NCBI GenBank assembly: GCA_041665025.1
Contig: JBAYJP010000001.1
Coordinates: 110,555 to 174,554 of the forward strand
Direction: 5' to 3'
DNA length: 64,000 nucleotides
Source: Candidatus Magasanikiibacteriota bacterium
Lineage (GTDB): Bacteria > Patescibacteriota > Patescibacteriia > Magasanikbacterales > UBA922
In this document: positions 5,167-60,188 of the stretch, piece by piece
Position numbering within the stretch: position 1 is the stretch's first letter
Layout of the letters: every line of letters begins with the position of its first letter
Notes under the pieces: model-generated
Told to the model about the DNA's origin: nothing
Databases searched by the model: none
The model's input: the letters and a program-made list of their open reading frames with translations, nothing else
Translations under genes and position numbers: made by a program

Positions 5167-5220
5167 ACCAGCTTTCTAGGCTATTTTGGCTATCTAAGTC
5201 TTCTGAGCACAAACAACGAT

Positions 5221-5574
5221 ATGGGAAATTACAAAAAACTTGATATATATCAACGTTCATTTCGTGCATCTATAGCCATATATAAATTGTCACTAGAATT
5301 GCCGAAATATTTACAATATGACATTGCCGATGACCTGAGAAGAGCTGCCCGATCCATTCCTTCAAATATCGCCGAAGGATTTGGACGAAACAAGTCAGAT
5401 AAGGATAAAATAAATTTCTTAAGAACATCTTTGGGGTCAAATGATGAAGTATTATTTAATCTTGAATTTATAAAAGAATTAAAATTGATTGATGATGAAC
5501 GACATAATAAAGCAACTATCGAATATAATAAAATTGGTTCTGGCATTATCCACTTAATAGAGGCAATAAATTAA
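5221..5574 (+). CDS. four-helix-bundle protein (TIGR02436; '23S rRNA intervening sequence protein' family)
   Basis: 117 aa. The start YQRSFRASIAIYKLSLELPK...AEGFGR matches the family signature. Confidence 0.75.
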   Translation: MGNYKKLDIYQRSFRASIAIYKLSLELPKYLQYDIADDLRRAARSIPSNIAEGFGRNKSDKDKINFLRTSLGSNDEVLFNLEFIKELKLIDDERHNKATIEYNKIGSGIIHLIEAIN

Positions 5575-5728
5575 AATACAAAAGCTGAGAAAGCCTAGAT
5601 AGCTTAGAAAACTAAGATGGCTAAAAATTATCCCCCTCTCGTCCACACTTCATCCCCTTTCATCGCCTGACACTGTCGGCGTTTTTTGTTATAATTTCAA
5701 AACTAAACACCAATAACAAACACCCCCT

Positions 5729-8613: not shown

Positions 8614-8631
8614 ATAATCTCATCGCGTATA

Positions 8632-8745
8632 CAACTCAAAAGTCAAATCTCAAAACTCAAATTTGGAACTCAAAACCTGTAAACTTTTAAGTTTGAAGTT
8701 TATATTTTGACTTTTGACATTTGAATTTTGAATTATTTGATGGTG
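8632..8745. repeat. palindromic intergenic repeat, family D (tcaaaagtcaaaact ... agttttgacttttga words)
   Basis: Word-like inverted repeats. Related copies occur at 54125-54240 and 55150-55238. Confidence 0.6.
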
Positions 8746-8757
8746 AATTAGAAATTT

Positions 8758-13452: not shown

Positions 13453-13515
13453 AATAGAACACGAATGAAACAAATTCGTCCAAATTAGTTTAATTCGTTA
13501 AATTCGCGTTCTATA
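13453..13515. repeat. palindromic intergenic repeat, family A (aatagaacacg...gaacgaattcgtt...cgtgttctat)
   Basis: Outer inverted repeat aatagaacacg/cgcgttctat. Related copies at 20097, 21477 and 23292, with a partial copy at 49741. Confidence 0.6.
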
Positions 13516-15236: not shown

Positions 15237-15386
15237 CTCCCCTTCTCAGGGAGTTTTAAATTATTCTAATTAACCTAATTGTTCTAATTATTCTAAATAA
15301 TGACTAGGCTTTGTATAATATTTTGAAATTGAGATTTGTTTTAGGTTAATTAGTATAATTAGAATAATTAGTATAATTAAATTCCA

Positions 15387-20075: not shown

Positions 20076-20096
20076 TTTTTGAATCTTTGGAATTTA

Positions 20097-20214
20097 AATA
20101 GAACACGGATTGAACTAATTTAACGAATCAAAACGAATTCGTTCAAATTAGTTAGATTAGTTAGATTAGTTAGATTAGTTAGATTAGTTAGATTCGTTTT
20201 ATTCGTGTTCTATT
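20097..20214. repeat. family A palindromic element containing 6 tandem copies of ttagattag
   Basis: aatagaacacggattgaac...gaacgaattcgttcaaatt + (ttagattag)x6 + attcgtgttctatt. Intergenic between the NUDIX gene and glyA. Confidence 0.65.
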
Positions 20215-20229
20215 TTTTAATTTAAAAAT

Positions 20230-38276: not shown

Positions 38277-39379
38277 CCGACTTTTCTCAAGCTTTTAATC
38301 TTTAATCTTTTAATCTTCAAATCTTTTCGGTTTTTCCATATCTCTGCCCAGCCTCTCAAAACCGCTCTATCAAACAACAAAAACCATACGAATTTCTTCA
38401 ATTCATACCATTTTATAAAGACCGCGTCAAGGAGCCAATTCTGCCAATATTCATTTTTATACAATGTCATGAGATGATTTTTGTAACTATGATACTTTAC
38501 CCACTCAGATTGTTTCTTCTTATTTTCTACGGCTGCACTGTCTCCCATCTCTTGTGGGCCAGCGGCAGAACGGTCATGATATGCGACCGTATCAAGTAAC
38601 ACGTACGATTTAAATCCTGCAGACTGTAATCGAAATGCTAAATCCACATCTTCTTTGTACGAATGATATGATTCATCTAAAAATGATCCGTCGCCAAACT
38701 TTACTGCTTCAATTGCAGCACGTCTATACAAGGGAAACGCCCCAGATACGCCAAACACTTCAAGCGCCGTTCCATCTCCGTTAAATCGTTCAGCACGATA
38801 CGACATCTTCATCTTTGGTTCAAGCACAGACCAATCTTTGCCTGTATATTTTTCTATTACCCGTCTGTTGCGGAATATTTTTAAACCCAAGGCATCAATA
38901 TTATTACTCAAGGAATCTTCAATTCTGCGTTCTGCGTTCTCAATTCTACATTTGCCAAAGTCCCATCTCATCAGCCGAGGGCTTACGACAGCAACGTCTT
39001 CATGAGTATCCATAAACTTCACCATTTTTTCCAAGCAATCGGGCATAAGATACATATCTTGGTTGAGCAACAAAACATATTCTCCTACTCCCTGATCCTT
39101 ATTCCCTGTTCCCCTAAATAACTGATTATGCCCCCCTGCAAATCCCTTATTCTCTTTATTTTCAATTAACTCCACTTCAACAGGAAAATTTTTCTTGTCC
39201 GCCGTAGCTTTAGCGAAGGTGGAAATCTCAGTCTTAATTTCTCGAAGTGTATCATCAGTTGATGCATTATCTAAGATTATCAGACGCCAATCTTTGAAAG
39301 TTTGTTTTCTTAGCGAATCAAAAAGATACGGGATATATTTTCCACCGTTCCAAGTTACTAAATGTACACTAAGTTTCAT
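38246..39379 (-). CDS. glycosyltransferase family 2
   Basis: LSVHLVTWNGGKYI...IILDNASTD. It contains an in-frame family H repeat (GTGNKDQGVGE) and a C-terminal family E repeat encoding KIKRLKIKS. Confidence 0.8.
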   Translation of the reverse strand: MKLSVHLVTWNGGKYIPYLFDSLRKQTFKDWRLIILDNASTDDTLREIKTEISTFAKATADKKNFPVEVELIENKENKGFAGGHNQLFRGTGNKDQGVGEYVLLLNQDMYLMPDCLEKMVKFMDTHEDVAVVSPRLMRWDFGKCRIENAERRIEDSLSNNIDALGLKIFRNRRVIEKYTGKDWSVLEPKMKMSYRAERFNGDGTALEVFGVSGAFPLYRRAAIEAVKFGDGSFLDESYHSYKEDVDLAFRLQSAGFKSYVLLDTVAYHDRSAAGPQEMGDSAAVENKKKQSEWVKYHSYKNHLMTLYKNEYWQNWLLDAVFIKWYELKKFVWFLLFDRAVLRGWAEIWKNRKDLKIKRLKIKSLRKVGWREIRKWWR

Positions 39380-39452
39380 AAGTTTTCTAAGTAACTAAGT
39401 TCACTAAGTAACAACTTAGAAAACTTAGCTAACTTAGCTACTTAGACAACTT
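39366..39452. repeat. palindromic intergenic repeat, family C (actaagt / acttagt words)
   Basis: cactaagtttcataagttttctaagtaactaagttcactaagtaacaacttagaaaacttagctaacttagctacttagacaactta. The second copy is at 59540-59640. Confidence 0.6.
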
Positions 39453-47199: not shown

Positions 47200-47212
47200 A
47201 TTAGTAAAATAA

Positions 47213-48957: not shown

Positions 48958-49662
48958 ATGGCCAAGCGCGTGAGACGCGCTCGTAGTGTGACCGGTGTCC
49001 CCACCCGGCCACAAGACCCGCTTCACGAGTGGCTCGGTATCACCGGGCTACTCATGAAACACGAGGTGACCGCGAACACCGTTACGGTTGTTCGTGGAAT
49101 CCTCGTTCTGCCGGTGATCATACTGGCAGGATTCGGCTTCAGTGGGGCGGCGTTTATTCTCCACCTTGTGAGCTGGTGGGGCGACGCCGTGGATGGTTCG
49201 GTCGCGCGCGAACGGCAGCGATGCGGCTACGTCGATAATCGGGATTTAGGGGAGTATCTTGACCCGATGGTCGACAAGGCTGCATGGGTGGCAGAGGCAA
49301 TGTTTTTACCTTTCGCCGCCCAAGCTGAACTCCGTCCGACGTGGGTGGTGGTAATCGCTATCGCGGCGATGTGTGTGCTCGTCCTCATCGAGGTTGCACT
49401 CGGCATCGTCCGGTGGCAAGATTACCACGCTAACACCAAGCAGACTACAGATGCGCCCAAACTCAACCTTGGGGCGCGCTGGTCAGGCAAGGTGAAGATG
49501 GTGCTCGAGGTCGCAGGACTCTCGACACTAATCCTTACCTCGTCCGACGAGGCTACTTGGTGCGTCCACGTGTGGGCGTGGGCGCTCGCGGCTGCTATGC
49601 CACTCGCCTCGCTCAGCCTGCTCCAAAAGATCTGGAGCAGGAAGGCTATAGTGGCAAACTAA
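48958..49662 (+). CDS. CDP-alcohol phosphatidyltransferase family protein on GC-rich island C
   Basis: Catalytic motif DAVDGSVARERQRCGYVDNRDLGEYLDPMVD (D-G-x2-A-R...G...D...D). AAGGAGG SD 5 nt upstream. About 62% GC versus about 32% in the flanks. Confidence 0.7.
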   Translation: MAKRVRRARSVTGVPTRPQDPLHEWLGITGLLMKHEVTANTVTVVRGILVLPVIILAGFGFSGAAFILHLVSWWGDAVDGSVARERQRCGYVDNRDLGEYLDPMVDKAAWVAEAMFLPFAAQAELRPTWVVVIAIAAMCVLVLIEVALGIVRWQDYHANTKQTTDAPKLNLGARWSGKVKMVLEVAGLSTLILTSSDEATWCVHVWAWALAAAMPLASLSLLQKIWSRKAIVAN

Positions 49663-49795: not shown

Positions 49796-50440
49796 CTATA
49801 CACCATGTCTAAACAAACTCACAAGCGCAAACCCGACTGACAACCCCAAAATTCCACTTGCAAATCTCAAAAATACTTCATTATCAAATACGAGTGCGAT
49901 AAGGATGGCGCACACTGCTAAAACCTGCAAAAACATTTTTATCTTTCCCCACAAATTTGCCATACGTACGGTCTTGAACTTCACATGAGCAACATATGCA
50001 CTGGCAATAAATATTATTTCAATGCCAAGTACAGCGATTCCAAGCCAAAAATTTAAATACTTAAAAACTAACAACAGCACCATGGAACCAATCAAAAATT
50101 TGTCCGCGAGTGGATCAATAAGCATGCCAAATTTGGTTATTTTGTTTTGAGTGCGTGCGAGAGATCCATCAAGCGCGTCAGTAAATGCAACTACTAAAAA
50201 TAAACCAACCCCTGTCTTGTAGTATCCATAAAGTATGGTGAAAAATACTACAGGGGTTGCGATAATGCGAAATATACTTATTTTGTTTGGCGTAATAGCA
50301 GATGGAAGCAATTTTAAAAATGTGCGGGCCAAAAAATAATCATGGGGATGAACTTCCTCTGCTTTGAGATAGGTGAACAAATCGTGGTTACGTTCCTTGA
50401 ACCGTTTGATAAAATTCATATTTTTCGCTAAACTATACAT
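49796..50440 (-). CDS. CDP-alcohol phosphatidyltransferase family protein (native AT-rich copy)
   Basis: AFTDALDGSLARTQNKITKFGMLIDPLADK motif and multiple TMs. Confidence 0.75.
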   Translation of the reverse strand: MYSLAKNMNFIKRFKERNHDLFTYLKAEEVHPHDYFLARTFLKLLPSAITPNKISIFRIIATPVVFFTILYGYYKTGVGLFLVVAFTDALDGSLARTQNKITKFGMLIDPLADKFLIGSMVLLLVFKYLNFWLGIAVLGIEIIFIASAYVAHVKFKTVRMANLWGKIKMFLQVLAVCAILIALVFDNEVFLRFASGILGLSVGFALVSLFRHGV

Positions 50441-50551: not shown

Positions 50552-50595
50552 GAAACAGGGTTTTGGCCCGCCGCGGCGGGCCAAAACCCTGTTTC
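50552..50595. repeat. perfect 44-bp palindrome gaaacagggttttggcccgccg|cggcgggccaaaaccctgtttc
   Basis: Exact 22+22 inverted repeat with a GC-rich core, in the divergent intergenic region between 49796..50440(-) and the membrane protein (+). Confidence 0.7.
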
Positions 50596-50667
50596 ATAAA
50601 TCCGAGCCTAAAGATAGTTCCATATCACCATGCATACACGAGGATTTATTCCACGGACTACAAAAAT

Positions 50668-52803
50668 ATGAATATACAGAAAAATAAAATTATTTCTTTA
50701 ACCATTTTCGGAATTATTTTGTGCATACTCAATATTTTTGTAGTGCACAGTGTTGTGATAGGCATAATAGGAATAGCATTGTACGCAACACAGCTTAGTA
50801 AATGGATAGGACATCTTGCTTTTACGAAATACGAAAGATTTGGAAAAAAATTATTTGGTTTTGTCATTCTCACGGGAATCATAATGACACTCAATGTACT
50901 TGTATATTACCCATACAAATTAACCACACTCACCACCATTATAATCCTATTAATCCCCTGTTTTCTCTTTTTTATAAAATCAAATCAGGAGAAGAGCACA
51001 AATGACAGTCCATGGGTCATGGAACGTTCACACGCCATGCAAACACTATTGTTTGTGGCTATAGATATAGCTCTTATTTATATTCTCACACAAAACAGCA
51101 CAACTGATGTTCTGCCATCTCCATGGATGAATATCAAACCCTGGTTTTTTATTTTATACGCAATCGCGACCGTAATATTACTCCATACCGTATCTGTCTC
51201 GCGACATGTTGGTAAAAGTATTGCACTTATTTCACTACATTTGTTTGTTACGTATAGCGTCGCATCGATTATCTATACACTTGGTTATGGATTTGATGGT
51301 TTTATCCATCGTGCCACAGAAACCTGGATTTTAAACAATGGGTTTATTACACCAAAACAACCATTTTATATTGGACAATACGGGCTCGTAGTGTGGCTTT
51401 CGCAGATCACACATATTTCAATTAAGATACTCGATATATATCTCGTGCCAGTCTTAACATCTCTCACACTTCCATTTTTTGTATATCACGCATTGCGATA
51501 CACGTGGAATATAGCGCAAGGCATTGCATTAAATCTTACATGGCTTTTGCCCTTTTTATTTTTCTTATCTTTTTATTTTACCACGCCACACAATTTAGCC
51601 TTACTATTTTTTATACTCGCCGTATTTGCAACAATTTCGTATGCAAAAGAAAAAATGCCATTCATTGTCCCTGGTGTTCTCTGTATAATGGCATCAATAA
51701 CACACCCACTTATTGGAGCACCGCTCTGTGTTTTTGTCTTTATTGCATTTGTTATACGAAAAATAAAAAACAAGTCTATTTCAGTTGTACTATCTATTTT
51801 TAATGGGATATCTATTGCGCTTGTACCGATTATTTTATTTACTCTGTTTCTTTTTATACATCATAATCCCCTTCCGAGCATTCAAAATCCTTTTACATTT
51901 GAACAAGTCCAGAGATTTACAGAATTAGTTGCACGTCCACATTGGTACATTGCACATGCGCCCATTATATTTGAATTACTTTACCTATGGCATGACGCTA
52001 TAATTCCGCTGGTAGTTATTATCGGCCTTGTTGGATTTTTTATAAAAAAAGAAAAGACATACATAGATTATCTCCTTATTTCTTCCTCACTTGGTTCTTT
52101 TATTGGCGCATGGTTATTGCGTACATGGGTTGTACTGCCCAATTTACTTGAAGAAGAACAAGCATCCTACCCTTTGCGCCTTTTGAGCATGGGGCTTCTT
52201 TTCCTCATGCCATTTTCAATGTATGGGCTATACGCCTTAGGCACGTGGTTTATGGAGAAAATAAAAAAATCCCGCAGCGAGCGGGATCCCGCTGTAGCGG
52301 GACAGCACATAGTAAAAGCATTATATATTCTTGGAGCAAGCGCACTTTTGATGGTTTCATTTTATTTTTCATATCCACAGCGCAATCCAAAAGTTTGGTT
52401 TCCCGGATTTAATGTTTCTCAAGCTGACTTTAGTGCCGTGGAGTGGATTCGCAATCAACATACTGATTATAATTATGTCGTGCTTTCAAATCCTATTACT
52501 GCCATGGCTGCTCTCACCAATTATAATTTTGTAAAACATTTCCAAACGCAAGAGCAAGGCGAATTATTTTATTATTCAATCCCAAGCGGTGGATATTTGT
52601 ACCGCATGTATTTGAACATGCTGTATGAAGTTCCCAAAGAACAATTTGTAGACGAAGTTAAAAAAACAACAGGGGTTGACACGGTTTATTTTGTGGTAAA
52701 TTCATATTGGGGAAGTTTCAAAAAAATTGTGGAAGAGCACAAAAAAACTGCCAAATCATGGCAGTCGATTGATGACGGAAAAGTGATGATATTTACTTAC
52801 TAA
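50668..52803 (+). CDS. large polytopic membrane protein (GT-C/O-antigen polymerase-like candidate)
   Basis: The start is placed at MNIQKNK because the upstream extension covers the palindrome. About 15 TMs, then a C-terminal soluble domain. Confidence 0.5.
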   Translation: MNIQKNKIISLTIFGIILCILNIFVVHSVVIGIIGIALYATQLSKWIGHLAFTKYERFGKKLFGFVILTGIIMTLNVLVYYPYKLTTLTTIIILLIPCFLFFIKSNQEKSTNDSPWVMERSHAMQTLLFVAIDIALIYILTQNSTTDVLPSPWMNIKPWFFILYAIATVILLHTVSVSRHVGKSIALISLHLFVTYSVASIIYTLGYGFDGFIHRATETWILNNGFITPKQPFYIGQYGLVVWLSQITHISIKILDIYLVPVLTSLTLPFFVYHALRYTWNIAQGIALNLTWLLPFLFFLSFYFTTPHNLALLFFILAVFATISYAKEKMPFIVPGVLCIMASITHPLIGAPLCVFVFIAFVIRKIKNKSISVVLSIFNGISIALVPIILFTLFLFIHHNPLPSIQNPFTFEQVQRFTELVARPHWYIAHAPIIFELLYLWHDAIIPLVVIIGLVGFFIKKEKTYIDYLLISSSLGSFIGAWLLRTWVVLPNLLEEEQASYPLRLLSMGLLFLMPFSMYGLYALGTWFMEKIKKSRSERDPAVAGQHIVKALYILGASALLMVSFYFSYPQRNPKVWFPGFNVSQADFSAVEWIRNQHTDYNYVVLSNPITAMAALTNYNFVKHFQTQEQGELFYYSIPSGGYLYRMYLNMLYEVPKEQFVDEVKKTTGVDTVYFVVNSYWGSFKKIVEEHKKTAKSWQSIDDGKVMIFTY

Positions 52804-52887
52804 GCCAATAGCCAATAGTTCGTAGCCAATAAATATCGCCCAAAACTCTATTGGCAATTGGCTATTGGCTCTGAACTATTGGCTATA
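52804..52887. repeat. family B palindromic intergenic element
   Basis: aagccaatagccaatagttcgtagccaat...ctattggcaattggctattggctctgaactattggctat. Confidence 0.6.
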
Positions 52888-54105
52888 AAGACTTACAAGC
52901 TTTTCAATATATTTCTCCTGCGTCAGCCCAGACAACATCTGGGTTGTTTTATTACTCATGATATGCAAATCTTGCGGATGTTCTATAGCCCATTTCATTT
53001 TCTCTGCAAGAGACGCCACATTCCCCGCTTCAAATGTAATACCACTCTCCCCTTCTTCAATAAGTTCGGCAATACCCTCGATGCGGCTGGCAAGAACCGG
53101 AATATGAAAAAATAAACTTTCAAAAATCACGGTCGGAGAATTTTCATAACATAACGATGGCACAACGGTTACATTCATGCGAGAAAATAATTCTGGCAAT
53201 TTATCCCGTTCCACACGCCCATGTACCGTAATATGCACGTTACCTTTTGTTTTTTCAATGACTTCATCTAACTGTGAACCATTTCCCACAATATGCAAAT
53301 GAATTTGTTTTTGCATGTCCAACTGAATATTTTTAAATGCTTCTATAAGCAAAAAAATACCTTTATGCGTCTCTATTTGCCCAAGATACAAAAAATTAAA
53401 CAGATCATTTCCCTGTTTCCTGTTCCCTGTTCCCTGTTCCCTGCTCTCCAATGTAAAGTCAAACGTCAATGGATTTCTCACCACTACTGTCTTTGACAAC
53501 GGAAAAAATCCTCGCTTGGTATAAAAGTCTAACAAAAATTGCGAAGGAGAAATGACAACCTGTGGCGAACCCATGAGTTTTTTCATAACCCACGTATATA
53601 TTTTTGTAGGAAACCCAGTATAACGCCATGAATGTTCCCTGTCTTTCAAAATCATCGCACTTGGTTCTACCAATTGCACGTCATGCACGGTATGGATATG
53701 ACGCAAACCAAGTTTGCGAATGACAGATGGAATAAAAAATGATAGGCCAATAAGATTATGCGTATGCACAATATCTGGTTTTTCTTTTTCCAAAATATTT
53801 TTTACCCAGCTGGCCGTAGAAAAATTAAAAATATCGCATACATGCCATATAAAACGTACCATACCGCTATGTTTGTGCGCGTCAGTATAAAAATACACAT
53901 TCGGCGGCCTGCGACGATAAATGGTCGTGTGTTCGTGACGTTCACTAAAATCCCCTCGCGGGGCACTGGTAATAATGACCACATCGTGACCTTGGGCAAC
54001 CAAACCCTGCGCAGACTTAACTACAACCTGCTCAGCTCCGCCACGGTGATAAGGAGGATAGATGTTGTTGATGATGCACACTTTCATAGCTCTGTAATAA
54101 TACAA
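52876..54105 (-). CDS. glycosyltransferase family 4 (GT-B)
   Basis: MKVCIINNIYPPYHRGGAEQ and a C-terminal E-x7-E-like EGIAELIEEGESG. It contains an in-frame family H repeat (EQGTGNRKQGND). Confidence 0.8.
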   Translation of the reverse strand: MYYYRAMKVCIINNIYPPYHRGGAEQVVVKSAQGLVAQGHDVVIITSAPRGDFSERHEHTTIYRRRPPNVYFYTDAHKHSGMVRFIWHVCDIFNFSTASWVKNILEKEKPDIVHTHNLIGLSFFIPSVIRKLGLRHIHTVHDVQLVEPSAMILKDREHSWRYTGFPTKIYTWVMKKLMGSPQVVISPSQFLLDFYTKRGFFPLSKTVVVRNPLTFDFTLESREQGTGNRKQGNDLFNFLYLGQIETHKGIFLLIEAFKNIQLDMQKQIHLHIVGNGSQLDEVIEKTKGNVHITVHGRVERDKLPELFSRMNVTVVPSLCYENSPTVIFESLFFHIPVLASRIEGIAELIEEGESGITFEAGNVASLAEKMKWAIEHPQDLHIMSNKTTQMLSGLTQEKYIEKLVSLYSQ

Positions 54106-54124
54106 AAATTCCTAATTCACCCAT

Positions 54125-54240
54125 GCATAATTCAAATCTCAAACGTCAAAAGTCAAAACTGCAACTAAAAATTTAAAAGTTTATATATTTGAGTTTTCAT
54201 TTTGAGTTTTGAGATTTGACTTTTGAATTTTATTTGCACC
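54125..54240. repeat. family D palindromic element (overlaps the 3' end of the methyltransferase gene)
   Basis: ctcaaacgtcaaaagtcaaaactgcaactaaaaatttaaaagtttatatatttgagttttcattttgagttttgagatttgacttttga. Its right half encodes the methyltransferase C-terminus KIQKSNLKTQNENSNI. Confidence 0.6.
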
Positions 54241-55146
54241 TATCGTCCAATGCCATCCTAGATGCTTAAACCCTGGAATCTTGAATAACATTTCATCAAC
54301 CGCCACGATTCCTTTTTCCAACCATAATGGCAAAACGATTCTCTTTTTAAGTTTGAATGCGCGAAAGGTAAATTCCAAAATATATTGTATCCATCCTGCA
54401 AACAACCACATAGGACGTACCGAAACTTTTTCCCATTTTCCTTCATGCAATACATAATTTATTTTTCTATAAGAAAATCCTGTCATTTCAGCGTCTGCGT
54501 GAGATACATTGTGTTCATCAGTGTGAGTCAGTCGTGACATGATGGGACGAATTATTTTCAGAGGCAAAAAATATGTTTTATTTGGCTCAACCCAAATACA
54601 CAGTTTGCCACCAGATTTCAAAACACGCGCAAATTCTTTCAAAGCTTCGCCATAATCTGAAAAATGATGCCAGACGGCGACCATATACAGTGAATCAAAC
54701 GTATTGTCTGCAAACGGCAAGTGCATACCATCTGCCGCAACATAGGTAGCATTTGTAGAATGTAATTTTGTAGAAAGTCGTTCCAGTGTTTTGGAAGAAA
54801 TATCAGACAACACCATTTTGTAATCAGGTAGGAAATGTTGCGCGTCATGTCCGCTCCCTGCGCCAATTTCCAAAATCAGACTGCCGGGTCGCAATTCTTT
54901 TATTGCACTGTGCAATCGAGTGTGATAATACACATTTCTCCATGCATTGAGCTGGTGCACGTTGTTGGCATCATCTTCCAAATGATCGTGATACTCTGCT
55001 TCTTCCTTTGCAAGTTCACCTAGTTCAGTTGGTAAGGCAACAATGACATTATTTTTCTTTTCATATACTTTTCCACATGAACAAATATAGCTTTGTCCGG
55101 GGATAAGCTCTTTCATTTCATTGTGACAGTCGGTGCAGATAAACAT
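54181..55146 (-). CDS. class I SAM-dependent methyltransferase with N-terminal zinc-ribbon
   Basis: CTDCHNEM...CSCGKVYE ribbon and motif I LEIGAGSGHDAQHF. Flanked on both sides by family D elements. Confidence 0.75.
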   Translation of the reverse strand: MFICTDCHNEMKELIPGQSYICSCGKVYEKKNNVIVALPTELGELAKEEAEYHDHLEDDANNVHQLNAWRNVYYHTRLHSAIKELRPGSLILEIGAGSGHDAQHFLPDYKMVLSDISSKTLERLSTKLHSTNATYVAADGMHLPFADNTFDSLYMVAVWHHFSDYGEALKEFARVLKSGGKLCIWVEPNKTYFLPLKIIRPIMSRLTHTDEHNVSHADAEMTGFSYRKINYVLHEGKWEKVSVRPMWLFAGWIQYILEFTFRAFKLKKRIVLPLWLEKGIVAVDEMLFKIPGFKHLGWHWTIGANKIQKSNLKTQNENSNI

Positions 55147-55149
55147 ACT

Positions 55150-55238
55150 TTAAATCTCAAAATTCAAATATCAAAAGTCAAAACTACAACTAAAAACTTA
55201 AAAGTTTATAGTTTTGAGATTTGACTTTTGAGTTTTCA
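55150..55238. repeat. family D palindromic element (immediately upstream of the methyltransferase start)
   Basis: aaatctcaaaattcaaatatcaaaagtcaaaactacaactaaaaacttaaaagtttatagttttgagatttgacttttgagttttcaa. Confidence 0.6.
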
Positions 55239-55636
55239 ACGCTCAGTATACCACATTTTAGAATAAAAAAACTACTTTTCTATAGTAGTCATTCGTGCTG
55301 ATATGGAGTGTGTCGCGCGCCCGGTGACGGCGGCGGAACGCCTAGCGACATCCAGAATTGGATGCCACCGTCACCGGGACACGCGCGGATCAGCGATCGA
55401 AGGCCTTGCCGCTTCCGGTTCTGCTCGCGATGTACGCGCATCGGCACTGCCGTGCCTCCTCGCGACTTGCGTGCGAACCGCTGCAGAAGCGACACGCCTT
55501 GACCCGCCGATTCTTGCTCTTGCTGGGACGAGGCATCCCAACCTCCTTCCTCGCGCGCCTCCGTGGCGCGCACAATGGTTCACATCATACACAAAAAAAG
55601 TCCAGATGTCAATCTGGACTGTAAAAAAATACAAAA

Positions 55637-55782
55637 CCCCGTTCGCACAAGTCACGTGGTCGCGAAGCGACTTTACGTGACTGTCACGTGTCCGCCCAAA
55701 GCGGATTTACGTGACATAACCTCCCCCACACTTCTACCAAATATCTGATAAAAGTATGGGCGAGTGCGAACGGGGTCGTTGC
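55637..55782. promoter_or_regulatory. putative operator/iteron region: 12-bp inverted repeat (ccccgttcgcac / gtgcgaacgggg) enclosing repeated ACGTG-containing sites
   Basis: gtcacgtggtcgcgaagcgactttacgtgactgtcacgtgtccgcccaaagcggatttacgtgaca has TTTACGTGAC x2 and GTCACGTG x2. It lies inside GC-rich island D, downstream of the 55829..56104 gene. Confidence 0.3.
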
Positions 55783-55828
55783 ATCGCCCTCTTGTTTTCG
55801 GTGGTGACCGAGCTTTCATGATCCCCCC

Positions 55829-56104
55829 TCACCCGCCCAAAAAATACCTCGGGCTGTATACCGGCTTGCGGCATGCGGCGCACTTGCCGGCGTTCTTGTC
55901 CTCGTCGTGGACGAGAACTGCGCCGCATCCGGTGCACCGGATGACCTTGGCGATGTTCGCCGGCGCCCTTGAGCAGTTCGCGTACTTGTTGACGTGGACG
56001 TGTACCTTCTGCCCCTTCCCCTTCTTCTTGTTCTTCACCTTTCCCCCACTGTTCTTCCAGCCCTTCTGTCGTTTCTTCTCACCCGTCGGGTTGATCTGCG
56101 CCAT
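55829..56104 (-). CDS. small Lys-rich protein with C-terminal CxxC...CxxC zinc-ribbon, on GC-rich island D
   Basis: GAGGAGG SD 6 nt upstream of the ATG. 91 aa: basic N-terminus, then IRCTGCG...KCAACRK. Confidence 0.45.
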   Translation of the reverse strand: MAQINPTGEKKRQKGWKNSGGKVKNKKKGKGQKVHVHVNKYANCSRAPANIAKVIRCTGCGAVLVHDEDKNAGKCAACRKPVYSPRYFLGG

Positions 56105-56301
56105 CGATCCTCCTCGTCAGCCGCCCAATATGTCGGGCGGGAAAATGGTTGCAACTATCCTCTCAAACTCTCTCTCTCTTGTCAACATCGTTTGCACATT
56201 TCATCAACAACTATCACTAAACATGGGTTGATAAATAAAGGTTAGTAAGGTAATATACGTGGGCGTTGGGTTAAGAAACTGGAAACCAGAATATATATCC
56301 G

Positions 56302-57774
56302 GTGTCTGGTTTCCTAACCCATCGCCCTTCCCATATGGTAGATATTACAGAGCTCGAAAAAATCCCCCCTCAAAACCTCGAAGCTGAAATGTCTTTACTC
56401 GGGTCTATTTTGCTTGATAAAGAAGCGCTTTTGAAAATCGCTGACATGATTGATAGTGATGATTTTTATAAATCGATACACAGTGACATTTATGAGACCA
56501 TGCTTGAGTTGTATGAAAAAAATGAACCCATAGATGTCTTGACCATGGGAAACAGATTGGAAGAAAAAAAGTTATTAGAAAAAATTGGTGGACGAAGTTA
56601 TTTGGTAAACTTATCAAATACCGTTCCTACTGCTTCGCATGTTCCCAAATACGCAGAAATTATTCGAAGAAAATCTACTTTGCGAAAACTCTTGCGTTCT
56701 GCGCAAGAAATATCACGATTGGGATACAAAGAAGATGCGGAAAGTGTCGAGTACATACTTGATGAAGCGCAACAACAACTATATAGCGTCACGCAAAAAC
56801 ATTTAAAGCAGACATTTACGCCCATTAGAGGAATTCTAAGCGATGCGTTTGAACGTATTGATGAATTGCATAGAGAAAAAGGAAAACTCCGCGGTGTGCC
56901 AACCGGATACAAACAATTGGACAACTTGCTTGCGGGATTGCAAAAGTCAGACCTCGTAATTCTCGCTGCTCGTCCATCAGTTGGAAAAACATCTCTCGCG
57001 CTTGATATGGCGCGCAATGTCGCAGTCCGCGCAAAAGTACCGGTCGGCATATTTTCGCTTGAAATGAGTAAGGAACAACTCGTCGATCGTCTACTCTGCG
57101 CTGAAGCTGGTGTTGATTTGTGGAAAATGAGAACAGGAAATTTATCTGACCGCCCAGATAGTGATGATTTTCCACGCATTGGACATGCGATGGGCGTGTT
57201 ATCTGAATCCCCTATTTTTATCGATGATTCTCCGGGAAATAACGTCATGCAAATACGCACGAAAGCTCGACGCTTGCAAGCAGAACATGGTCTCGGACTG
57301 GTAGTGATAGACTACTTACAACTCATGGAATCGCCAAATTCAAAAGGCAATGACAATCGTGTTCAGGAAGTCGCGGAAATCAGTAGAAATTTAAAAGGCC
57401 TTGCGCGTGAACTCAATGTGCCTGTGCTTGCGTTATCACAGCTATCACGTCTCGTAGAACAACGCAAGCCGGCAATACCAAAACTTTCTGATTTGCGCGA
57501 ATCAGGATCTATTGAACAAGATGCTGATGTAGTAATGTTTATATATAGAAAGTCCGCAGACAGAAACTACCGATTGGAAGATGTACCGCCCGATGAACGA
57601 AGTATTGCAGAAATTCATATCGCAAAACATAGAAATGGTCCGACCGGCATGGTGCGTGTATTTTTTGATGAACAGCGTGCGAGTTTCAGAAATTTGGACA
57701 CTCAGATGGGAAATTTTACCCCTCCACCACAATCAATGCCTCCACAAAAGACAAATTCGGTGCCAGCGTTTTAA
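56302..57774 (+). CDS. dnaB: replicative DNA helicase DnaB
   Basis: N-terminal NLEAEMSLLGSILLD, RecA-like domain with GKTSLALD and the H4 motif. A possible true start is MVDITEL at about 56335. Confidence 0.9.
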   Translation: MSGFLTHRPSHMVDITELEKIPPQNLEAEMSLLGSILLDKEALLKIADMIDSDDFYKSIHSDIYETMLELYEKNEPIDVLTMGNRLEEKKLLEKIGGRSYLVNLSNTVPTASHVPKYAEIIRRKSTLRKLLRSAQEISRLGYKEDAESVEYILDEAQQQLYSVTQKHLKQTFTPIRGILSDAFERIDELHREKGKLRGVPTGYKQLDNLLAGLQKSDLVILAARPSVGKTSLALDMARNVAVRAKVPVGIFSLEMSKEQLVDRLLCAEAGVDLWKMRTGNLSDRPDSDDFPRIGHAMGVLSESPIFIDDSPGNNVMQIRTKARRLQAEHGLGLVVIDYLQLMESPNSKGNDNRVQEVAEISRNLKGLARELNVPVLALSQLSRLVEQRKPAIPKLSDLRESGSIEQDADVVMFIYRKSADRNYRLEDVPPDERSIAEIHIAKHRNGPTGMVRVFFDEQRASFRNLDTQMGNFTPPPQSMPPQKTNSVPAF

Positions 57775-60097: not shown

Positions 60098-60188
60098 AAT
60101 ATACAGCTCATGTACGAAATACGAAAGCTACGAAATATCCGAAATAACACTTTCGTACCTTTCGCAGTTTTCGTATTTCGTACATAAA

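Follow-up and report, generated by a model that had tools for sequence, protein, structure and literature searches.

The intervening sequences (IVSs) of 23S rRNA genes are the closest described relatives of the repeats reported here. The IVS of Coxiella, a selfish element of 428 nt, has inverted repeats and an open reading frame (ORF) for the S23p protein that is preceded by tandem heptameric repeats; it is excised by RNase III (PMC4990558). The copy number of the heptamer varies among Coxiella strains, and the questions of how both the 23S rRNA IVSs and the PF05635/S23p family arose, move and function date back to the 1990s without an answer (PMC4990558). In rRNA genes of the Candidate Phyla Radiation (CPR), known IVS sites carry short insertions that lack an ORF, and 23S_rRNA_IVP ORFs are present too (PMC11270868). 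Small palindromic repeats are also known among protein genes: Rickettsia palindromic elements (RPEs) make in-frame fusions, and Correia/NEMIS and ERIC (enterobacterial repetitive intergenic consensus) elements can form stems when they are transcribed together with their neighbours; RNase III cuts the Correia stems in mRNA, and the amount of mRNA changes when ERIC lies at its 3' end (PMC10969869). Coding sequence can also come from ERIC-type units (PMC2759123). Here we describe family D, a family of palindromes in a 64,000-nt stretch of a Candidatus Magasanikiibacteriota genome (GCA_041665025.1, contig JBAYJP010000001.1, positions 110,555 to 174,554; the window, below), where two copies bracket a gene for an S-adenosylmethionine (SAM)-dependent methyltransferase (MTase) and one of them encodes its C-terminus. 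We consider it likely that the MTase is a resident gene around which two selfish palindromes of this IVS-related family inserted, the copy at the junction with the next gene displacing the stop codon, a reading built on observed anatomy, insertion relative to orthologues, synteny and family link.

The methyltransferase gene and its flanking palindromes

The gene, the three family D copies of the window and the sequence features tied to them are as follows:

54181..55146, minus strand: MTase ORF, zinc ribbon plus class I SAM domain, 321 aa, supported by the ORF list, Pfam, orthologues and synteny
54097..54233, minus strand: family D copy c54k, a hairpin (54125-54233) plus a 35-nt tail, GAATTATGCATGGGTGAATTAGGAATTTTTG, toward the start of the downstream glycosyltransferase gene
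54184..54231, minus strand: C-terminal extension (K)IQKSNLKTQNENSNI, the last 15-16 codons of the MTase, read from c54k
55147..55240, minus strand: family D copy c55k, a hairpin without tail directly 5' of the MTase ATG (1-5 nt), probably in the 5' untranslated region (UTR)
55245..55255, minus strand: weak extended -10-like motif TGTGGTATACT just upstream of c55k, read from the sequence only
8631..8757, plus strand: family D copy c8k, a hairpin at 8631-8735 followed by the tail, which reaches to the ATG (8758) of the next gene

An earlier note on this DNA had reported a 321-aa methyltransferase with a palindrome immediately 5' of its ATG, and both observations hold (ORF and Pfam for the former, c55k at ~55147-55240 for the latter). 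Residues 92-184 match Methyltransf_11 (PF08241) with 72.7 bits against a cut-off of 21.2 (E 4e-20), and Methyltransf_25 is also matched; the protein thereby has the Rossmann-like SAM-binding domain above the Pfam cut-off that defines a class I SAM-dependent methyltransferase. Its N-terminus carries a four-cysteine motif (C4, C7, C22 and C24), and a comparable CxxC...CxxC is present in about half of 39 aligned orthologues. The best database match is the identical gene in a JGI call that starts at M11 (P0001, 100%); the next best has 59% identity.

The C-terminus of the MTase is read from the repeat. The TAA stop codon (54181-54183) sits in the hairpin loop of c54k. W298-H299-W300 is invariant in the alignment of 39 orthologues, each of which ends 6-12 residues later, whereas the window protein continues for 21; four further orthologues likewise end 6-12 residues past WHW, which brings the total to 43 orthologues, none with the tail. 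The residues beyond the orthologue ends are exactly the translation of the A-rich arm of the repeat. This arm is free of stop codons in every frame, so an ORF that loses its stop at the edge of the element would read on into the loop. The alignment supports a history in which one D copy displaced the MTase stop codon and added ~15 codons. The earlier note had offered a gene end remodelled by repeat insertion as one of its two explanations, and this is the one that the absence of the tail from the orthologues and its identity with the arm bear out; none of the 43 orthologues has a homologous tail in a genome free of family D, which would have spoken against it. That c54k covers the last 16 codons also stands, but its end had been placed at 54125, and the ~35-nt tail shared with c8k extends the copy to ~54097.

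All three D copies are AT-rich, 90-140 bp long and without an ORF, and each folds into a long, imperfect hairpin (-23 to -35 kcal/mol, z -3.3 to -6.4). Their arms consist of 4-5 tandem heptamers, TCAAAnn, with about one stem mismatch per heptamer. The inverted arms of c54k extend over 38 nt at 71% and 29 nt at 83% complementarity (fold -29.5 kcal/mol, z -4.5), and those of c55k (55159-55189 / 55206-55236) are 81% complementary (fold z -3.3 / -5.0). The two copies around the MTase had been called near-identical; aligned, these direct repeats, which share one orientation, are 82-85% identical (82% over 93 columns). The third copy, c8k, has the opposite orientation to both and is 80% identical to c54k over 141 columns, the 35-nt non-palindromic tail included. 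A 15-mer from the repeat has 11 matches with at most 2 mismatches in the 64-kb window, against 0.54 expected, all of them within the three D copies. That two of the three copies surround one gene is best explained by local duplication, although the members of the flanking pair (82%) are no closer to each other than to the distant c8k (80-82%); the hairpin density of the genome also contributes.

The tail common to c54k and c8k (54097-54124; 8736-8757) contains a Shine-Dalgarno (SD)-like GGTGA 11 nt before the ATG in c8k (8758) or a TTG in c54k (54105). Speculatively, and from these two cases only, the tail might restore translation initiation for the downstream gene. The TGTGGTATACT motif upstream of c55k is not listed by a promoter consensus scan, since it lacks a -35 element. 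Rfam searches of the window at gathering thresholds and of the region at E<=1 returned no family, the matches being chance hairpin resemblances to miRNA precursors of plants and animals, and a literature search for the repeat sequence itself gave nothing relevant.

The neighbours of the MTase place it in a conserved setting:

52876..54087, minus strand: family 4 glycosyltransferase (GT4), operon partner of the MTase (Pfam Glycos_transf_1 / Glyco_transf_4)
50563..52803, plus strand: polytopic membrane protein, 746 aa, a syntenic neighbour (ORF; counterparts in L001, L116 and L117)
56302..57774, plus strand: dnaB, the syntenic neighbour on the other side (ORF; next to the MTase and divergent from it in L001, L115, L116 and L117)

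The gene order in the window, membrane protein (+), GT4 (-), MTase (-) and dnaB (+), recurs in relatives among the collected loci, which we cite by L numbers. The order dnaB(-), MTase(+), GT4(+) is kept in L001, L115, L116 and L117, in which the MTase is 51%, 47%, 49% and 52% identical to the window protein, respectively. In L001, L116 and L117, a membrane protein of 566-707 aa (-) follows GT4 in the same relative position as the 746-aa protein of the window, and the MTase-GT4 pair is also seen in L027, with an MTase ~58-59% identical. Heptamer arrays are absent from L001-L003 and L027. Where there is no insert, the MTase/GT4 junction is tight: a 4-nt overlap in L001 (CTATGA) and spacers of 13 nt in L027, 25 nt in L115 and 3 nt in L116. 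In the window, the distance from codon K306 to the GT4 ATG is 145 nt, of which ~137 nt are the family D element. The native GT4 start is MKVCIINN at 54087, in agreement with the orthologous starts MKICIINN in L001 and MKVCIINN in L027; the TTG at 54105, inside the tail of c54k, is in frame with it. Judged by its gene neighbourhood, the MTase is a resident, vertically inherited gene, the first of a conserved MTase-GT4 pair beside dnaB in Patescibacteria. Because the synteny is conserved, the flanking elements have no ORF and no recombinase lies nearby, we conclude that the repeats came to the gene.

Distribution of family D and its kinship with 23S rRNA intervening sequences

A 21-mer, TCAAAAGTCAAATCTCAAAAC, is exact and common to all three window copies and served as the search key for all family members. 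It was found in 23 stretches of species-representative genomes and in 87 metagenome stretches, with no occurrence in viral contigs; by our own arithmetic, ~0.3 matches would be expected by chance in 596 Gb at equal base frequencies. The bins of the species-representative genomes are labelled Ignavibacteria, Deltaproteobacteria, Omnitrophota, Saccharibacteria, Paceibacterota, Levyibacteriota, Chloroflexi, Aminicenantes, Gammaproteobacteria and Bdellovibrionales. Two of the loci, L016 and L022, have nearly identical flanks, yet their bins are labelled Deltaproteobacteria and Ignavibacteriales. Identical 21-mers occur in loci of 29-58% GC, and the copies share modules past the 21-mer (CCACAACTCAAAAC-TTAAAA) across phylum labels. 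Altogether there are 114 copies, 39 of which fold as hairpins (median span 88 nt) and 75 of which have one arm only; 35 unique loci are full palindromes. GC-rich secondary inserts lie in or beside the loops of several D-type hairpins (L011, L015/L032, L024, L034 and L016/L022), for example GTTGCGCGGCAAGCTCGTTGCTTTGCGCAAC in L015, which suggests nesting of other small elements.

The collection comprises at least 72 non-redundant loci. About 47 of the 72 lie between genes and typically fill the space from one stop codon to the following start within an operon, as in L026, where the copy lies between ORFs that, from their sequences, we take to be rpsC and rplP. At 10 loci the upstream ORF runs into an arm, and at 9 a single A-rich arm lies in frame inside a long ORF. 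The QKSNLKT reading of the 21-mer, in the same frame as in the MTase, also ends genes elsewhere (...AQKSNLKT in L018 and ...SQKSNLKTQK in the rpsC-like ORF of L026). The long ORFs with in-frame arms are presumably UvrB, MurC, MetRS, topoisomerase I, two MiaB-like proteins, a SpoU-like methylase and a YjeF-like protein, again by our own reading of their sequences. Such in-frame single arms are present in L030, L035, L046, L047/L072, L061, L077 (two inserts), L028 and L013, and in-frame arms outside the window use all three reading frames (SKVKSQN, LKSQISKL and QKSNLKT). Orientation relative to the flanking genes is ~16:8, a ratio that is not decisive for an element that is palindromic.

Two further settings tie family D to the 23S rRNA IVSs. 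The first is the 23S rRNA gene itself, in which hairpins with the identical 21-mer are found in L065, L070/L076/L099 and L114, with the same flanks again in L105. The L070 insert of 126 nt takes the place of an 8-nt hairpin loop at 23S model positions ~152-178, and the L114 insert of 152 nt that of a 12-nt loop at model positions ~274-296. These rRNA-located copies show the classical IVS arrangement.

The second setting is the PF05635 (23S rRNA-intervening sequence protein) ORF, which D-type inverted arms 370-475 nt apart enclose in five independent places: L008/L085, L057, L109 (twice) and L113. The four arm-enclosed ORFs that were scanned match the Pfam family with E values of 1e-18 to 1e-27. 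With a hidden Markov model (HMM) made from four arm-flanked ORFs, additional PF05635-like ORFs are detected in the collected loci, nearly all of them flanked by short-period inverted arms; most inverted-repeat scores around PF05635-like ORFs lie at 19-39, whereas the controls average 10.7 and have a 99th percentile of 20.5. Repeats of another type, CTAATTnnn, also form arms around a PF05635 ORF in L028 (2905-3367). The window has one ORF-bearing element of its own:

5170..5613, plus strand: element with a 117-aa PF05635-like ORF at 5221-5574 (HMM E 7e-11)

Its arms (5170-5198 / 5585-5613) are 29 nt long and 79% complementary, with a sequence that differs from family D, and it begins right after the stop codon (5166) of an upstream gene of 879 aa. 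The MTase/GT4 junction itself has been entered by such an element in a relative. In L117 (GCA_018824545.1; 4619-5064), the gap between MTase and GT4 is filled by a 115-aa PF05635/bAvd ORF with 26-nt inverted arms of the heptamer type, of which the left arm encodes the last MTase codons plus the stop and the right arm reaches to within 1 nt of the GT4 ATG. The L117 element is a second, independent hit on this junction.

Because 21-mer hairpins occur in 23S rRNA and D-type arms surround PF05635 ORFs, and given the IVS literature cited above, we place family D as an ORF-less member of the IVS-type hairpin family. It belongs to the same sequence family as the 23S rRNA IVSs, and is best read as an ORF-less, IVS-type selfish hairpin that sits between and within protein genes. 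The literature that was searched, which was incomplete in coverage, contains no account of IVS-type elements beyond rRNA that we could find, and they may be noted elsewhere.

Probable mechanism of insertion and alternatives

On the reading that we favor, one D copy inserted between the probable promoter and the start codon of the MTase, and the other exactly at the MTase/GT4 junction, where relatives have a 4-nt overlap or a spacer of 3-25 nt. The junction insertion displaced the original stop, so that translation now runs 15-16 codons through the A-rich arm to the TAA in the loop; this adds a low-complexity K/N/Q tail and, with the overlap of the two genes lost, uncouples the MTase from GT4. 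The hairpins would be co-transcribed with the genes, and the TGTGGTATACT motif, by its consensus, would make c55k a 5'-terminal stem-loop. By analogy with rRNA IVSs and Correia elements, the mRNA stems of ~35-40 bp may be cut by RNase III, which would separate the MTase and GT4 messages.

Several results weigh against this reading. The flanks of 35 palindromic copies show no clear target-site duplication (TSD), and although TAA/TTA often adjoins palindromic copies, the heptamer periodicity leaves the register ambiguous. No transposase or mobility gene lies between arms: the compact pairs, 370-475 nt apart, enclose PF05635 ORFs only, in a search that took arm pairs 150-3000 nt apart from a small sample selected by the 21-mer and checked the inner ORFs of the wider pairs by eye. 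Arms of the same copy are no more complementary than arms of different copies (7.4 versus 7.6, p 0.55), so no copy-specific covariation points to selection for RNA structure, a comparison that carries no information on selection at the RNA level; a regular-expression search of the window ORFs did not find the RNase III signature motif. Collection by one exact 21-mer biases the census, and the phylum labels are those of metagenome-assembled genome bins, which are possibly contaminated. Finally, the closest orthologue is 59% identical, no true empty site was seen among relatives at this distance, and the ancestral stop position is deduced from distant orthologues.

Of the alternatives, de novo growth of heptamer microsatellites survives best, although we regard it as improbable. 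In this scenario slippage expanded TCAAAnn arrays, much as in the heptamer repeats of cyanobacteria described below, and fold-back or template switching made them palindromes, without insertion and without common descent with the rRNA IVSs. The strict 7-nt periodicity of the arms, the variation of heptamer number among copies, paralleled by the differences between Coxiella strains (PMC4990558), the presence of several unrelated short-period hairpin families in the same window, and the 75 of 114 copies that have one arm only all fit this scenario. Slippage does not account for the sharing of non-periodic modules, CCACAACTCAAAAC-TTAAAA across phylum labels and the 35-nt tail in c8k and c54k, for 21-mers that stay identical in loci of 29-58% GC, or for the recurrent association with PF05635 ORFs.

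Slightly less probable still, and in our view unlikely, are regulatory hairpins evolved by the host (intercistronic terminators, attenuators or mRNA-stabilizing stem-loops) that arose in place rather than as inserted selfish DNA. The precise location of copies between stop and next start inside operons would suit such a role, as would the SD-like GGTGA 11 nt before ATG/TTG in the tails of c54k and c8k and the promoter-like TTGACT-18-AATTAT matches that the arm holds. Evolution in place, however, cannot yield the same 21-45-nt sequence in 23S rRNA genes, in ORFs and around PF05635 ORFs under many phylum labels, and the hairpins are absent from orthologous junctions; their stems are AT-rich with no separate T-run after them, and a terminator scan lists none of them.

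The mobile or exchangeable cassette put forward in the earlier note, a unit bounded by the two direct D copies and moved or swapped in one piece like a composite transposon or integron cassette, is very improbable: two of the three window copies do bracket a single gene within 1.1 kb, in the same orientation and at 82-85% identity, but the dnaB-MTase-GT4 order is kept in distant relatives without repeats, the 90-140-bp elements have no ORF, no integrase, transposase or other recombinase lies nearby, the sequence shows no attC-like core sites, c8k sits at an unrelated junction and flanks no cassette, and other hairpin families fill the neighbouring intergenic gaps, so that the bracketing follows from hairpin density plus local duplication.

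Beyond insertion of family D around a resident MTase, we offer a wider proposal, tentatively and with somewhat less than even confidence. The rRNA IVS may be just the most familiar home of a class of selfish hairpins that is pan-bacterial and has short-period (mostly 7-nt) stems, which would carry a PF05635 S23p/Avd-like gene in their "autonomous" form and could colonize any transcribed RNA: rRNA loops, the stop/start junctions of operons, 5' UTRs and, in frame, housekeeping proteins. The hairpin families of the window (D, AGCCAAT, AATTCGT, TACGAAA, CTAATT and others) would be ORF-less members of this class. Tightly coupled genes would be preferentially targeted at their stop/start junction, because the MTase/GT4 junction was hit twice independently, and the S23p protein would aid spread or processing. 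Avd, a relative of the S23p protein, partners a reverse transcriptase.

For the MTase itself the consequences are modest: a harmless-looking tail of 15 residues and the loss of translational coupling with GT4. The wider interest lies in one hairpin sequence that occurs in four settings, namely, rRNA loops, the surroundings of S23p ORFs, the gaps between operon genes and the interior of essential proteins, which makes family D a tangible case for studying the movement of IVS-type elements and the ways in which cells tolerate or process them. The annotation of CPR and other metagenome genomes is affected as well: such elements shift stops, add low-complexity peptides and split operons, and gene callers treat them inconsistently, as with the JGI start at M11.

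Other hairpins and two GC-rich segments were observed in the window. It contains at least 12 short-period hairpins of at least five sequence families, one of them next to GT4:

52808..52886, no strand assigned: hairpin of the AGCCAAT/ATTGGCT heptamer family between the convergent ends of the membrane-protein and GT4 genes, with 24-nt arms that are 92% complementary

Further AGCCAAT copies are at 47212 and 58168. At least four intergenic hairpin families other than D have arms made of 7- or 9-nt tandem repeats (AATTCGT/TTAGTT, CTAATTnnn, CTAAGTT, AGCCAAT and TACGAAA), with sites at 13467, 15259-15379, 20096-20215, 21476, 23292, 39369-39437, 47212, 52808-52886, 58168 and 60110-60185. Between c55k and dnaB lies a GC-rich (50-66%) island of ~0.9 kb (55290-56200) in a genome of 38% GC, where relatives have only ~125-170 nt. 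Its minus strand encodes two small, basic, cysteine-rich ORFs with strong SD sequences, 56104..55829 (91 aa) and ~55535..55390 (48 aa, MPRPSKSKNRRVKACRFCSG...), and it also contains a promoter, TTGACA-17-TATGAT (55612-55584), and two hairpins, one of them GC-rich and the other of AT with a T-run; no part of 55290-56200 has a significant Pfam match. The island was possibly acquired horizontally. At 48958-49662 (+), a CDP-alcohol phosphatidyltransferase ORF of 60% GC adjoins a low-GC paralogue (49796-50440, -), at a place where L116 has a single CDP-OH_P_transf gene; the GC-rich copy looks horizontally acquired.

Comparison with known systems

That a repeat supplies the C-terminus of a gene is a known phenomenon; what lifts the finding is the identity of the element, which is IVS-type and heptamer-built and exists in ORF-less and S23p-bearing forms. 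Several known classes of repeat can be set aside. The REP (repetitive extragenic palindromic) sequences and REPINs associated with RAYT proteins are described as GC-rich palindromes of 20-40 bp with a 5' GTAG or CGTC tetranucleotide (PMC3733652). We rejected them because the family D element is 90-140 bp long, AT-rich and without a GTAG/CGTC head. A composite transposon was rejected because the flanking elements, at that length, carry no ORF. Integron cassettes resemble the locus in having a single ORF with imperfect palindromes of ~60-140 bp, and this resemblance lies behind the cassette idea; they were rejected because there is no integrase, no array and, by inspection, no RYYYAAC/GTTRRRY ends, and because the neighbours dnaB and GT4 stand in conserved synteny.

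The short tandemly repeated repetitive (STRR) sequences of cyanobacteria are intergenic tandem heptanucleotide repeats that recur across the lineage and have no known function. Family D shares the tandem heptamers with STRR but has different unit sequences. STRR are not known to form inverted arms around PF05635 ORFs or to lie in rRNA.

The Correia/NEMIS and ERIC miniature inverted-repeat transposable elements, or MITEs, are, like family D, small, non-autonomous inverted-repeat elements between operon genes. Family D also has the multiple dispersed copies expected of a small element with terminal inverted repeats (TIRs), three in the 64 kb of the window and 72 unique loci elsewhere. Unlike MITEs, it has yielded no TSD, parent insertion sequence or transposase; the whole element is a hairpin rather than a core with short TIRs, and PF05635 is the only ORF found between family D arms.

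The RPEs are close in behavior. Like family D, they are palindromes of ~100-150 bp that are tolerated in frame inside proteins (PMC10969869), and palindromes read in frame in host proteins are what we find in the MTase tail and, elsewhere, in 10 C-terminal run-ins and 9 internal arms. The likeness drawn here is one of behavior. Family D is built of heptamers, occurs under many phylum labels rather than in one genus, and is tied to the rRNA IVSs and to PF05635.

The 23S rRNA IVSs remain the closest match. Both have a long stem formed by inverted repeats (arms of 29-38 nt, 71-83% complementary, in the window), and both exist in ORF-less forms of ~100 nt (the Salmonella type) and ORF-bearing forms of ~430-530 nt (the Coxiella/Leptospira type). 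The PF05635 four-helix-bundle ORF of the long IVS forms is present in the wider family and absent from the ORF-less D copies of the window, and heptameric tandem repeats beside the ORF are a further likeness (PMC4990558). Insertion in an rRNA helix in place of its loop is seen in the relatives that share the 21-mer (L065, L070/L076/L099 and L114) and not in the window copies. Unlike a 23S rRNA IVS, the copies of the window occupy intercistronic and 5' UTR positions in protein operons, and one of them is translated as the C-terminus of a methyltransferase.

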